Shown: positions 1,613 through 7,445, counted from the stretch's first letter. The stretch: 24,000 nt of DNA from Pseudomonadota bacterium (GCA_046732855.1 JBKPNX010000003.1:28322-52321); one strand, 5' to 3'. Translations and numbers: made by a program. The notes: generated by a model from the sequence alone, not told the origin.

Positions 1613-2650
1613 ATGGCGATCTCCCAGGAGGCTCTCTCCCGCTCGGCCGGCGCGCTGACCCCGAACACCGCCTTGATGCAATACGGCAAGGTGGCGCGAC
1701 TGGACGATTTCGTCGGGCGGCGTAGTCCCGAATACCGCAATCGCGCCGACCCCGGCCCGTTTGACCCTTATCGTCTCAATGACGAGTTCGACCAGCTGAG
1801 CATCCGGTTCGAGCCGGACAACCACGCCCTGTGGTGCATGGTCAACCATCTCGAGCGCCCGTGCTTCACGTCGCGGCTGCTTGATCAGATCCGCACCCTG
1901 CAGACCCGCCTGCGGCAGGGCCTTGCGCAGGCATCCCTCCGCGAGGAGCTGCCGGTCCGCACCATCATCTGGGGCTCCACTTGCCCCGGCATCTGGAATT
2001 TGGGCGGTGATCTCGCCTTGTTCACGCGCCTGATACGCGCAGGCGCCGCAGCGGACCTGCGCAGCTACGCTTACGCCTGCGTCGATGCGGTGTACCAGAA
2101 CCTGACCAAGATGGGACTTCCTCTGTTGACGATCGGGCTGGTCCAGGGCGACGCCTTGGGCGGCGGCTTCGAGCACGCGCTCACCAATGACGTGCTCATT
2201 GCGGAGCGCAACTGCAGAATGGGCCTGCCCGAGATCCTGTTCAACCTGTTCCCCGGCATGGGGGCTTACAGCCTGCTGTGCCGCCGGCTCGACGGCGTGC
2301 GCGCCCAGAAGCTGATCCTGAGCGGCCGGTTGTACGATGCTGCCGAACTCGAGGAGTTGGGGCTCGTCGACCTGGTAGTGGGCGAGGGTGAGGGGCCGGC
2401 TGCGGTGCGCGAGTATCTCGAGCGCAATCGGCGGCGCCACGGCACCCTGCTGGCGCTCAGCCGGATCCGCCAACGTTGCCAGCCGGTCACTTACGAGGAG
2501 CTGATCGATGTCACCGACGTATGGGTGGAAACCGCCCTCGGTCTCGACGAAGCCGACCTGCGGCGGATGGAGCATCTGGTCCGGGCGCAGGAGCGGCGCC
2601 ACGCCCGCGCGCGGCCCGCGCCGGCGAGACACCTCAGTGCGGTCGGCTGA
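1613..2650 (+). CDS. rpfF: DSF-family signal synthase, crotonase/enoyl-CoA hydratase superfamily (RpfF-like)
   Basis: Blocks WNLGGDLALFTRLIRAG, LVQGDALGGGFEHAL, GLPEILFNLFPGMGAYSLLCRRL and EHLVRAQERR closely parallel my memory of Xanthomonas RpfF (FNLGGDLALFCQLIREG, LVQGNALGGGFEAAL, GLPEVLFDLFPGMGAYSFMCQRI, DRLVRAQSRR). Both catalytic Glu positions (GGGFE, LPE) are present. It has an N-terminal extension of about 50 aa, and an alternative start at 1676 is possible. Confidence 0.85.
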   Translation: MAISQEALSRSAGALTPNTALMQYGKVARLDDFVGRRSPEYRNRADPGPFDPYRLNDEFDQLSIRFEPDNHALWCMVNHLERPCFTSRLLDQIRTLQTRLRQGLAQASLREELPVRTIIWGSTCPGIWNLGGDLALFTRLIRAGAAADLRSYAYACVDAVYQNLTKMGLPLLTIGLVQGDALGGGFEHALTNDVLIAERNCRMGLPEILFNLFPGMGAYSLLCRRLDGVRAQKLILSGRLYDAAELEELGLVDLVVGEGEGPAAVREYLERNRRRHGTLLALSRIRQRCQPVTYEELIDVTDVWVETALGLDEADLRRMEHLVRAQERRHARARPAPARHLSAVG

Positions 2651-5291: not shown

Positions 5292-7445
5292 TCAGCCCAC
5301 GGCTGCTGCCGGGAGCCCCGGACTGGCGAACACCGCGTGGAACGCTTCCGCCGGCAGCGGCGGGCTGATCAAATCGCCCTGGGCCTCGTCGCATCCGAGC
5401 TCTTGCAGACGATGCAGTTGCTCGACGCTCTCGACCCCCTCCGCGGTCACCTTCAGCTCCAGACTGTGGCCGAGATCGATGACGGCCCGCACGATTGCCT
5501 CGTCCTGCCCGTCGAGCCCCAGCCGGTGGACGAAACTCTGGTCGATCTTGAGCCGTTGCACCGGCAGCCGCTTGACGTAAGCGAGCGACGAATAGCCGGT
5601 GCCGAAGTCATCGAGCGAGAAGCCGATGCCGACTTTGCGCAGCCGGCGCAGGCTCGCCATCGCGGCATCGCTGCTCTCGAGCATGACGCCCTCGGTCAGC
5701 TCGATTTCGAGGTAGCGCGGATCGAAGCCGGTCTCGGCGATGGTCCGCTCGATCAGCTGGACCACCCCGCCCTCGCGGAACTGCACCGGCGACAGATTGA
5801 CCGAGAGGCGCAGGCCGGTCATCCCGGCGCGCTGCCACATACGGTGCTGACGACACGCGCGTTCGAGCACCCGCTCGGTGAGCGGCCCGATCAGGCCGAT
5901 GTCCTCGGCCAGGCCGATGAACTCGGTCGGGCGCACCATCCCGCGACGCGGATGACGCCAGCGCAGCAGTGCCTCGACGGCAACGATGCACCCGGTGTGC
6001 AGATCGCGCTGAGGCTGATAGTGTACGGTAAACTGATCGGCTGCGAAGCCCTGGCGCAGCTCGCGCTCCAAAAGGCCGGTACGCCGCGCCACCAGGTTCA
6101 TCTGAGGCGCGAAGAAGCAGCTGCCGTTACGGCCGTTGGCCTTGGCGCGGTACATCGCAAGCTCGGCGTTCTTGAGCAACCGGTCCGCGTTTTGACCGTC
6201 CGAGGGGAACATGGTGATGCCGATGCTGGCGCTGGTGTGCACCTCCTCGCCGCGGGCGTCGAACGGCTGACCGAAACTGTCGATCATCCGGCGCGCCAGC
6301 GCGCGCGGATCGTCGGGGCCGCGCACGCCCGATTGCAGGATCGCGAATTCGTCGCCGCCGAGGCGCGCGATTGCGCCGGCGTCGTTGACGCAGCTCTGGA
6401 TTCTCGCGGCGACCGCCCGCAGCAGCAGATCGCCGCAAGTCAGGCCGAACGCGTCGTTGACCCCCTTGAACCGATCGAGATCGAGCAGGAGCACGGCGGC
6501 CTGCTCGTGGCCGCGCCGGGCGCACGTCAGGGCATGCTCGAGGAGATCCTTGAACAGGGCGCGATTGGGCAGGCCGGTCAGGGCATCGTGGCCCGCCTGA
6601 TGGCGGATCTGCGCCTCGGCCCGCTTGAGGTCGGTGACGTCGAGGGACACGGTGACGACCTCGACCACGCGCCCGGCCTCGTCGAACAGCGGCGACTTGG
6701 TGGTCAACAGCGTGTGTTCCTGGGTCGAGCCCGGCGTGATCACCTCGTGCTCGAAGCTCGGCACGGTCTCCCCGGTCTCGAACACCTTGGCATTGAGCAC
6801 CAGGTGCTGGGTCGCATAGTCGTCGCCATGGACCTGAGCAAGGGTCTTGCCGGTCGCCGCGCCGGGGTCGATACCGTAGAGCCTGCGGTGGGCGCTGTTG
6901 GTCAAGGTGATCCGCCCGCAGGCGGTCACCGCGCTGATCAGCGCGGGCACGGTATCGATCAGACGGCGCAGGCGGCAGTCGCTCGCGCGCAGCGCCGCCT
7001 CGTGCTGCTCCGTGCTCGACAGCAGCTCGTGGTGGAGGTCGCGCGCCCGCTGCTCGAGCAGCTTCTGCTGCTTGCGCAGGGTCAGCAGGTTGCGCGCTCG
7101 GGCTCGGAACTCGTGGTGGTCGACCGGGCTCAGCAAAAAGTCGGTCGCTCCCGCCTCGAGCGCCTGATAGCAATAGCTGCGCTCTTCATATACGGTCACC
7201 ACCACGACGGGCACCTCGGCGGCCCCCGGGATGGCCCGGAACGCCCGAGTGAAATCGGCGCCGTCCATACCCGGCATCTTGAAGTCGGTGATCACCAGGT
7301 CCGGCATGGTGCCGCGAGTCCAGTCCAGCGCCTCCTGCGGACTGGCGAATGCCTTGACCCTCACCCCCTCCTCGACCGAGGCGGCCAGCCGCGTCAACAC
7401 GTTGCGATTGGTGACGCGATCGTCGATTACGACTACGTTCGGCAT
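5292..7445 (-). CDS. Response regulator with c-di-GMP turnover output: REC-PAS-GGDEF-EAL
   Basis: - REC: MPNVVVIDD...DLVITDFKMPGMDG.
- A coiled-coil linker and a PAS region (LRRLIDTVPALISAV...).
- An intact GGDEF motif (RLGGDEFAIL).
- EAL-domain motifs EALLRW and DDFGTGYSSL.
- The start is set at ATG 7445 so that REC begins right after Met. The ORF track extends to 7535 (TTG/ATG), which would add 30 non-domain residues.
- It lies 114 nt upstream of rpfC on the same strand. Confidence 0.85.
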   Translation of the reverse strand: MPNVVVIDDRVTNRNVLTRLAASVEEGVRVKAFASPQEALDWTRGTMPDLVITDFKMPGMDGADFTRAFRAIPGAAEVPVVVVTVYEERSYCYQALEAGATDFLLSPVDHHEFRARARNLLTLRKQQKLLEQRARDLHHELLSSTEQHEAALRASDCRLRRLIDTVPALISAVTACGRITLTNSAHRRLYGIDPGAATGKTLAQVHGDDYATQHLVLNAKVFETGETVPSFEHEVITPGSTQEHTLLTTKSPLFDEAGRVVEVVTVSLDVTDLKRAEAQIRHQAGHDALTGLPNRALFKDLLEHALTCARRGHEQAAVLLLDLDRFKGVNDAFGLTCGDLLLRAVAARIQSCVNDAGAIARLGGDEFAILQSGVRGPDDPRALARRMIDSFGQPFDARGEEVHTSASIGITMFPSDGQNADRLLKNAELAMYRAKANGRNGSCFFAPQMNLVARRTGLLERELRQGFAADQFTVHYQPQRDLHTGCIVAVEALLRWRHPRRGMVRPTEFIGLAEDIGLIGPLTERVLERACRQHRMWQRAGMTGLRLSVNLSPVQFREGGVVQLIERTIAETGFDPRYLEIELTEGVMLESSDAAMASLRRLRKVGIGFSLDDFGTGYSSLAYVKRLPVQRLKIDQSFVHRLGLDGQDEAIVRAVIDLGHSLELKVTAEGVESVEQLHRLQELGCDEAQGDLISPPLPAEAFHAVFASPGLPAAAVG

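Follow-up and report, generated by a model that had tools for sequence, protein, structure and literature searches.

We analyzed a 24,000-nucleotide stretch of DNA from a Pseudomonadota bacterium (GCA_046732855.1 JBKPNX010000003.1:28322-52321; this whole stretch is referred to as the window, and positions are counted from its first letter), and we consider it likely that three genes located between positions 1613 and 7445 form an RpfF/RpfC-type circuit of the DSF (diffusible signal factor) family in which the cognate regulator is a REC-PAS-GGDEF-EAL protein instead of RpfG. These genes, all located where a preliminary description made from the sequence alone had placed them, encode an RpfF-family crotonase, i.e., a putative DSF-family signal synthase (1613-2650, + strand, 345 aa), an RpfC-type hybrid sensor kinase (2634-5177, - strand, 847 aa), and a response regulator in the rpfG position (5292-7445, - strand), encoded 5′ of rpfC on the same strand. 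A 2015 review of DSF-family perception recognizes two core routes, RpfC-RpfG and RpfR (PMC4504480). Our comparison of related loci shows what appears to be a third DSF wiring, one that is common to many Alphaproteobacteria and not peculiar to one genome.

In the circuit that we propose, the crotonase would produce a cis-2-enoic acid signal, and this signal would be perceived at the short N-terminal sensor and five-transmembrane-segment input domain of the kinase. A phosphoryl group would then pass within the kinase from H222 to D628 and on to H777, and from H777 to the Asp of the regulator's receiver, with the REC-PAS module shifting the balance of the GGDEF and EAL domains; hydrolysis of cyclic di-GMP (c-di-GMP) by the EAL domain would be the conserved activity. 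We infer the chemistry of the signal, the phosphotransfer to a receiver lacking the conserved Lys, the sign of regulation and any role of the PAS domain. The preliminary description, which is partly supported by our analysis, was right in outline, including the Xanthomonas geometry (an output gene followed by rpfC, convergent with rpfF), which the layout of the window matches; its account of the origin of the regulator needs to be revised, and phosphotransfer and bifunctionality call for more caution than it showed.

A survey of gene neighborhoods, suggested in the preliminary description, demonstrated that this arrangement recurs. Our crotonase profile gave at least 592 matches in species-representative genomes, of which the best 80 were used for locus counts, and the census was made by tblastn with domain-level queries, plus Pfam searches on ten partner proteins; since this sample is biased to the relatives of the query, the partner fractions do not describe the whole family. 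A REC-PAS-GGDEF-EAL gene is present beside rpfC in 44 of these 80 loci, three of them with an extra PAS domain. The remaining loci contain a REC-PAS-histidine kinase (5 of 80), a REC-PAS protein alone (3 of 80) or a REC-HD-GYP protein (6 of 80, all in gammaproteobacterial metagenome-assembled genomes [MAGs], with the HD and GYP motifs confirmed), or are incomplete contigs or contain the crotonase alone (22 of 80). The convergent layout, with rpfF facing a regulator gene followed by rpfC, is found in at least 58 related loci. Chance adjacency was excluded by the E-values of the individual domains and by the recurrence of the REC-PAS-GGDEF-EAL gene in 44 of 80 crotonase-anchored loci.

The synthase and sensor genes

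The crotonase matches Pfam ECH_1 (72 bits, E 6e-20) and scores 348 bits against the NCBIfam model NF006452 (cut-off 177), on which the validated RpfF synthases of Xanthomonas campestris and Cronobacter score 414 and 404 bits, respectively. Its top four matches in the PDB are all DSF synthases, i.e., 7zq7 (214 bits), X. campestris RpfF (3m6m, 211 bits), and Cronobacter RpfF and Burkholderia Bcam0581 (6dgn and 5fus, 183 bits), whereas crotonases in the PDB that are not DSF synthases reach at most 66 bits, with Pseudomonas DspI (5wyb) at 46 bits. These scores (183-214 bits against DSF synthases versus at most 66) rule out an ordinary beta-oxidation hydratase, and the grouping of the crotonase with such hydratases, which the preliminary description had named as the result that would speak against its proposal, was not what we found; the crotonase groups with DSF synthases. 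Both catalytic residues are present, Glu187 (2171-2173) and Glu207 (2231-2233); they align to two Glu residues of 3m6m and are invariant in an alignment of 11 relatives. In X. campestris RpfF the catalytic pair is E141 and E161, positions that we checked on the 3m6m alignment. The genome collection searched contains no identical copy of the crotonase; its closest relative there is 93% identical, and the nearest named one, from a Geminicoccaceae MAG, is 78% identical. On this evidence, the gene product is a member of the DSF-synthase family, with production of a cis-2-enoic acid as its predicted activity.

The kinase contains HisKA, HATPase_c, Response_reg and Hpt domains, all over the Pfam cut-offs. 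From its N terminus it consists of a sensor peptide, five hydrophobic segments, the HisKA-HATPase pair, an extended linker, REC and Hpt. The five hydrophobic segments lie within residues 43-199 as judged by a Kyte-Doolittle scan, which is a crude guide and not a topology predictor. The residues of the relay, H222 (4512-4514), D628 (3294-3296) and H777 (2847-2849), are present in motifs that are conserved in 66 homologs. The decisive point is the sensor motif R38-S-D40-T41-E42-H-E-Q45 (5043-5066, - strand), which abuts the first transmembrane helix. In the 22-residue N-terminal sensor of X. campestris RpfC, R15, D17, S18, E19 and Q22 are essential for DSF perception, and an S18T variant is functional (Cai et al., PMC5391125). 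All five of these positions are matched in the window kinase, with the tolerated Ser-to-Thr change, and the pattern R-x-D-[ST]-E-H-E-[QM] is kept in most of the 66 aligned rpfF-adjacent kinases, including 4 of the 6 paired with REC-HD-GYP regulators. The kinase can thus be assigned as an RpfC-type DSF sensor that is predicted to bind DSF. Together, the PDB and NF006452 scores of the crotonase and the domains and sensor motif of the kinase bear out the preliminary assignment of RpfF-like and RpfC-like genes at a DSF-type locus.

An alternative is that this locus does not serve quorum sensing at all, with the crotonase being metabolic and the two-component pair sensing fatty acids from outside the cell or from the membrane, or some unrelated cue. 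We regard this as very unlikely. The crotonase is a member of the narrow family in which the validated DSF synthases are found, and it has both catalytic Glu residues; the kinase has the exact DSF-sensor residues; and the synthase, the sensor and the regulator have been inherited together in dozens of genera. What can be said for a role outside quorum sensing is that no signal molecule has been demonstrated for the alphaproteobacterial members, with no paper on DSF signaling in the carrier genera found in the full-text literature that we searched, which covers few subscription journals; that rpfB is not adjacent; and that the crotonase stands alone at some loci.

At their stops, the convergent rpfF-like and rpfC-like genes share 17 nt (2634-2650), and an overlap of the same length is present in two related loci (L002 and L003). 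A variation on the sensor was observed in Inquilinus limosus DSM 16000 (L066), a cystic-fibrosis pathogen, where two extra genes (13692-14597 and 14854-15684) are located between rpfC and the regulator gene. Both have a tblastn match to the RpfC-type membrane input domain and, in a Pfam search made on L066 only, contain HisKA with no ATPase domain, and we classify them as RpfH-like truncated sensor paralogs. The same pair of extra tblastn matches is present in L031, a record labeled “Mycobacterium sp. KBS0706”; since its gene order, both sensor paralogs included, is that of I. limosus, the organism name looks wrong for this contig.

The REC-PAS-GGDEF-EAL regulator

The regulator frame encodes 717 aa from the ATG at 7445 and stays open to a TTG at 7535; the start at ATG 7445 fits, because the gene calls of relatives are 715-717 aa. 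Pfam identifies Response_reg (80 bits), PAS_4 (53 bits), GGDEF (155 bits) and EAL (240 bits) domains and our reading of the motifs finds both catalytic motifs intact, confirming the REC-PAS-GGDEF-EAL gene that had been described in the rpfG position. The 114-nt gap between the regulator gene and rpfC contains no terminator-like site. Relatives frequently have these two genes overlapping by 4 or 8 nt (range 4-8) or less than 30 nt apart, as expected of an operon, and the linkage of the two genes is operon-like.

The GGDEF domain (6126-6593, - strand) contains a literally intact GGDEF motif (6345-6359) together with the DxLT, NR and DxD motifs and, as read from the sequence, is without the RxxD inhibitory site. 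The EAL domain (5358-6065, - strand) contains the EAL motif at 5967-5975 and also the N, ELTE, DDFGTGYSS, KID, EGVE and QG motifs. Comparison of the GGDEF-EAL orthologs demonstrated that EAL, DDFG and EGVE are kept in essentially all of them, whereas the GGDEF motif is degenerate in nine, where it reads GGGQF, RSDEF, GSDEF, ESDEF, GADEF, EGDEF or GGDQF. Because the EAL domain is near-invariant, the GGDEF motif has decayed in nine orthologs and the canonical occupant of this slot is a phosphodiesterase, we take c-di-GMP hydrolysis to be the conserved output; i.e., the regulator probably acts as a phosphodiesterase, functionally analogous to RpfG. The GGDEF domain encoded in this genome would either add cyclase activity or serve as a GTP-sensing regulatory domain. 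The bifunctional cyclase/phosphodiesterase that was suggested earlier is weakened by the decay of GGDEF beside a near-invariant EAL in the orthologs.

The same wiring could also operate with the opposite sign, with phosphorylation activating the GGDEF domain as it does in PleD, so that the signal raises c-di-GMP, or with the protein toggling between cyclase and phosphodiesterase. Such a model is supported by an intact GGDEF motif, with intact GTP-binding and catalytic residues, in the window protein and approximately 35 of the 44 orthologs, by the absence of the RxxD product-inhibition site, and by the best solved receiver match, which is domain 1 of PleD. We nevertheless judge it to be improbable, although a serious rival, given the nine orthologs with a decayed GGDEF motif and near-invariant EAL, DDFG and EGVE, the presence of an HD-GYP phosphodiesterase in this slot in the sister arrangement, and the outputs without any c-di-GMP domain that fill the slot in other relatives.

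The receiver domain (7095-7436, - strand) retains the acidic pair, the phospho-acceptor Asp (7284-7286) and the Thr of the canonical receiver quintet, but the quintet is incomplete, with Ser (7128-7130) replacing the Lys. In an alignment to PleD, the best solved receiver match, this Ser stands opposite the conserved Lys (“DFLLSPVD” versus “DFLTKPID”). The change is a property of the whole group and not of one protein; all 53 aligned REC-PAS partners contain Ser at this position (Thr in one), whereas 6 of 6 REC-HD-GYP partners contain Lys or Arg. Across the fetched loci (1.5 Mb), each locus contains exactly one Ser-type receiver, which is always the partner of RpfC, and all 93 other receivers with the Asp contain Lys or Arg. 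When 1.84 billion representative proteins were searched with the REC-PAS segment, 455 matches were obtained at E <= 1e-30. The beta-5 motif is visible in 101 of the top 150, and Ser or Thr is present in 90 of these 101, with the consensus G-A-T-D-F-L-x-S-P-V. These findings define, at the level of sequence, a coherent receiver subfamily marked by the Lys-to-Ser change.

The subfamily belongs to one lineage with the receivers of RpfG-type proteins. REC-PAS-type receivers have a mean identity of 45-49% to REC-HD-GYP receivers, which are 51% identical among themselves, versus 25% to the internal receiver of RpfC and 33% to PleD, and all of the output receivers form one clade in a neighbor-joining tree built with no bootstrap. 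Our comparison shows common descent of the window receiver with RpfG-type receivers. The outputs behind the REC-PAS module vary, and can be GGDEF-EAL, GGDEF, PAS-HisKA-HATPase, an alpha/beta hydrolase or none.

The PAS_4 domain (6621-6974, - strand; 52.9 bits) is the constant companion of the Ser-type receiver. A profile of 36 PAS sequences searched against the PDB matched 9rc0, a “HD domain/sensory box protein”, best (56 bits), with the PAS domain of RpfR (6dgg) at 22.7 bits (E 9e-4), under dozens of unrelated PAS domains; the single PAS sequence gave weak, generic matches only. The domain is thus no closer to the RpfR PAS than to PAS domains in general, i.e., it is not specifically RpfR-like. 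From the receiver identities and the PAS comparison, we interpret the regulator as an RpfG-lineage receiver with a different output and not as a modified RpfR, and reject an origin as RpfR plus a receiver. The preliminary description had likened the protein to RpfR with a receiver added, a picture that is not supported, given the PAS scores (22.7 versus 56 bits), the lack of an RpfF-interaction domain and the RpfG lineage of the receiver. Direct binding of the fatty acid by the PAS domain, which it had also raised, found no support in the sequence, although, given the strict conservation of the domain with the receiver, such binding may occur. Since the PAS domain invariably accompanies the Ser-type receiver it presumably matters, and it could act in ligand binding, dimerization or signal transmission.

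These features bring in another model, in which the regulator acts without phosphorylation and takes its input through the PAS domain, as RpfR does, from an intracellular ligand that is possibly the fatty acid. The Lys-less receiver would then only dock or dimerize, perhaps with RpfC or RpfF, and RpfC would signal elsewhere or restrain the synthase. The replacement of Lys by Ser or Thr in 53 of 53 REC-PAS partners and 90 of 101 global representatives would be expected under this model, as would the presence of PAS_4 with the Ser-type receiver whatever the output, and soluble DSF receptors that use a PAS domain are known, RpfR and RpfS (PMC4504480). In addition, one member of the subfamily has an RpfF-family gene as its neighbor on a 5.5-kb contig that contains no RpfC (L086). 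However, the acidic pair, Asp and Thr are strictly kept, which is hard to explain if the receiver is never phosphorylated; the receiver has common descent with those of RpfG; the H-D-H relay of the kinase is complete with Hpt and needs an acceptor; and the PAS domain has no specific similarity to that of RpfR. We therefore rate a PAS-driven, phosphorylation-independent regulator as unlikely.

We also advance, tentatively and as a doubtful proposition, a broader view, in which the Ser-type receiver plus PAS_4 would be a distinct, undescribed class of signal-integrating module that is dedicated to DSF loci, with swappable outputs, an altered active-site chemistry, and two inputs, i.e., a phosphoryl group or contact from RpfC, and a cytoplasmic PAS ligand, possibly the fatty acid. 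If this is true, the integrating module would add a third core route to DSF perception, perhaps the one that prevails in Alphaproteobacteria.

Returning to phosphorelay from RpfC to a REC-PAS-GGDEF-EAL output, which we favor, several points weigh against it. The conserved receiver Lys normally contacts the phosphoryl group and is regarded as essential for phospho-activation. Because Ser replaces it, phosphotransfer or the normal switch to the active state may be changed or missing; the simple phosphotransfer of the preliminary description is less certain than was assumed, with the Ser present in every ortholog. An intact GGDEF domain without the inhibitory site could give net cyclase activity. 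Among the open reading frames (ORFs) scanned in the 24 kb there is no HD-GYP gene, and a canonical RpfG could be located elsewhere in the genome. Finally, the crotonase scores 235 bits against the xanthomonad RpfF equivalog NF053515, which is under its cut-off of 550. This model is narrow, in that the validated Cronobacter RpfF scores still lower (186 bits), and so the shortfall indicates only that the crotonase is not a xanthomonad ortholog.

Occurrence in other genomes and neighboring genes

The full arrangement is carried by Pseudovibrio axinellae, P. denitrificans, Rhizobium spp., Agaricicola taiwanensis, Sabulicella glaciei, Pinisolibacter aquiterrae, Plastoroseomonas hellenica, Ancylobacter moscoviensis, Inquilinus limosus and Microvirga brassicacearum, with Acetobacteraceae (Roseomonas group) among the carriers. 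In a neighbor-joining tree of the synthases, which has no support values, those partnered with REC-PAS proteins form one large clade, which is apart from the HD-GYP-partnered ones, from the pair of X. campestris RpfF and 7zq7, and from Cronobacter RpfF. As a reciprocal check, we chose five Ser-type REC-PAS proteins blind to their genomic context. Three of the four informative contigs contain an RpfF-family neighbor, two of these three with the complete rpfC arrangement; the fourth, a 4.5-kb contig, contains neither gene, and the fifth contig is too short to judge.

In L086 (820-4268), a protein with a Ser-type REC-PAS and a C-terminal alpha/beta hydrolase (P0185, 669 aa) is encoded divergently from an RpfF-family crotonase that is 43% identical to that of the window.

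Several of the carriers are culturable and of interest to ecology or the clinic, i.e., the sponge-associated Pseudovibrio, the cystic-fibrosis pathogen I. limosus, Rhizobium and Microvirga isolates, and Roseomonas-group Acetobacteraceae. Taken together, the loci amount to a natural output-swap experiment, in which one sensor and one receiver lineage are joined to HD-GYP, GGDEF-EAL, histidine-kinase or hydrolase outputs, and the Ser-type receiver offers a tractable case for how Lys-less receivers work.

The window has a G+C content of approximately 68%. On the rpfF side of the locus, a gene encoding a coiled-coil protein that has an OmpA peptidoglycan-binding domain at its C terminus (31-1212, + strand; Pfam OmpA, 67.9 bits) occupies the position where the preliminary description had noted an OmpA-like gene and no adjacent rpfB, and the ORF scan agrees with both observations; an acyl-CoA ligase (rpfB-type) gene is not among the scanned ORFs of the whole 24-kb window. 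The OmpA-like gene is 5′ of rpfF in close relatives with long enough contigs (L001, L002 and L004-L009) and is not present at the more distant rpfF loci among those fetched. We regard it as a neighbor, with no membership of the circuit implied. It is followed by a terminator-like hairpin (1216-1240, + strand) with an 11-pair stem, 9 of the pairs being G-C, and a T-rich tail, which is a match to the consensus only. Since this hairpin precedes rpfF, the gene may have its own promoter region (1241-1612). The hairpin was the only convincing site in a promoter and terminator scan of the window, in which the counts equaled the shuffle expectation, and an Rfam scan of the window found zero RNA families and no riboswitch tied to the locus. 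Two ORFs that overlap the locus (1550-2632, - strand, and 5148-7565, + strand) were rejected as real genes, since they have no domain matches and shadow strongly supported genes in DNA of 68% G+C.

Beyond the regulator gene, no convincing gene was seen in 7446-8138, and a stand-alone FIST_N/FIST_C protein is encoded at 8139-9329 (+ strand). A FIST gene is also found beyond the regulator gene in L006, L009 and a 185-kb JGI contig, and this neighbor is conserved across Geminicoccaceae-like relatives. Between the regulator gene and the FIST gene, both L001 and the JGI contig contain a ZorA-like/MotA gene and an OmpA-like gene, a pair that is missing from the window. The remainder of the window contains genes for a NUDIX hydrolase, a helix-turn-helix (HTH) regulator, a penicillin-amidase-family hydrolase, ABC transporter components, a flavin monooxygenase and a PRC-barrel protein, and GmrSD-N and HNH fragments. 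The penicillin-amidase-family (Ntn hydrolase) protein (11291-13804, - strand) has 837 aa and a Pfam score of 784 bits; its match to PvdQ, an acylase, is weak and partial (67 bits, cut-off 950). This family includes acyl-homoserine lactone acylases, and the protein, encoded approximately 4 kb from the DSF locus, may be a quorum-quenching or acyl-amide hydrolase. Between 18000 and 19729 the G+C fraction falls to 0.525, and this region contains a fragment of a GmrSD N-terminal domain (18000-18374), an HNH-endonuclease ORF that is separate from it (18542-19354) and, on the - strand, an MqsA-like antitoxin/HTH gene (19439-19729); it looks like a small, possibly decayed, defense or mobile islet.

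Comparison with known systems

An RpfC paired with a REC-PAS-GGDEF-EAL regulator was not found described in the full-text literature searched. RpfF/RpfC/RpfG systems have also been described for Xylella, Stenotrophomonas and Leptospirillum, the last of which (2021) has a canonical RpfG, and a cold-seep metagenome survey tallies rpfF, rpfC and rpfG without describing the architecture reported here.

Single elements of the locus resemble several known regulators. RpfS of Xanthomonas, a DSF-binding soluble histidine kinase with a PAS_4 domain, lacks a receiver, and its gene is not beside rpfC. The loci L011, L038, L054, L060, L087 and L089 carry REC-PAS_4-HisKA-HATPase in the regulator slot, so that the same receiver is followed by domains in an RpfS-like order, a likeness judged on domain order. 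RavR, PvrR and RocR resemble the window regulator in being EAL-phosphodiesterase response regulators under the control of histidine kinases. RavS and RavA phosphorylate RavR of Xanthomonas, which breaks down c-di-GMP (PMC6707612), and thus GGDEF-EAL response regulators can be kinase-controlled phosphodiesterases. RavR differs in having a degenerate GGDEF motif (GSDEM) and its phospho-accepting Asp at residue 496, and in not being encoded at the rpfF/rpfC locus, and PMC6707612 mentions no PAS domain and no Lys-to-Ser receiver for it.

The RpfF/RpfR system of Burkholderia cenocepacia and Cronobacter is similar in linking a fatty-acid signal to c-di-GMP turnover, and in combining a DSF synthase with a PAS-GGDEF-EAL protein that has both motifs intact, the latter likeness being one of architecture only. 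RpfR is a soluble, direct receptor that reportedly has an N-terminal RpfF-interaction domain and no receiver, and it works without RpfC, whereas the window regulator has an N-terminal receiver and is accompanied by a membrane-bound RpfC.

The greatest number of shared features is with RpfF/RpfC/RpfG of X. campestris, where the synthase gene is likewise convergent with an operon of a regulator gene followed by rpfC. The two systems have in common the sensor motif, the five-segment input domain, the H-D-H relay, the receiver lineage (45-49% identity) and, probably, c-di-GMP hydrolysis as output. They differ in that the window output is PAS-GGDEF-EAL and not HD-GYP (with no HD or HD_5 match), with a PAS domain inserted between receiver and output, and Ser in place of the receiver Lys; in that rpfB and rpfH are not located nearby, and a linker of approximately 130 residues precedes REC in the kinase; and in the host, which is an alphaproteobacterium with Geminicoccaceae MAGs as its nearest named relatives.

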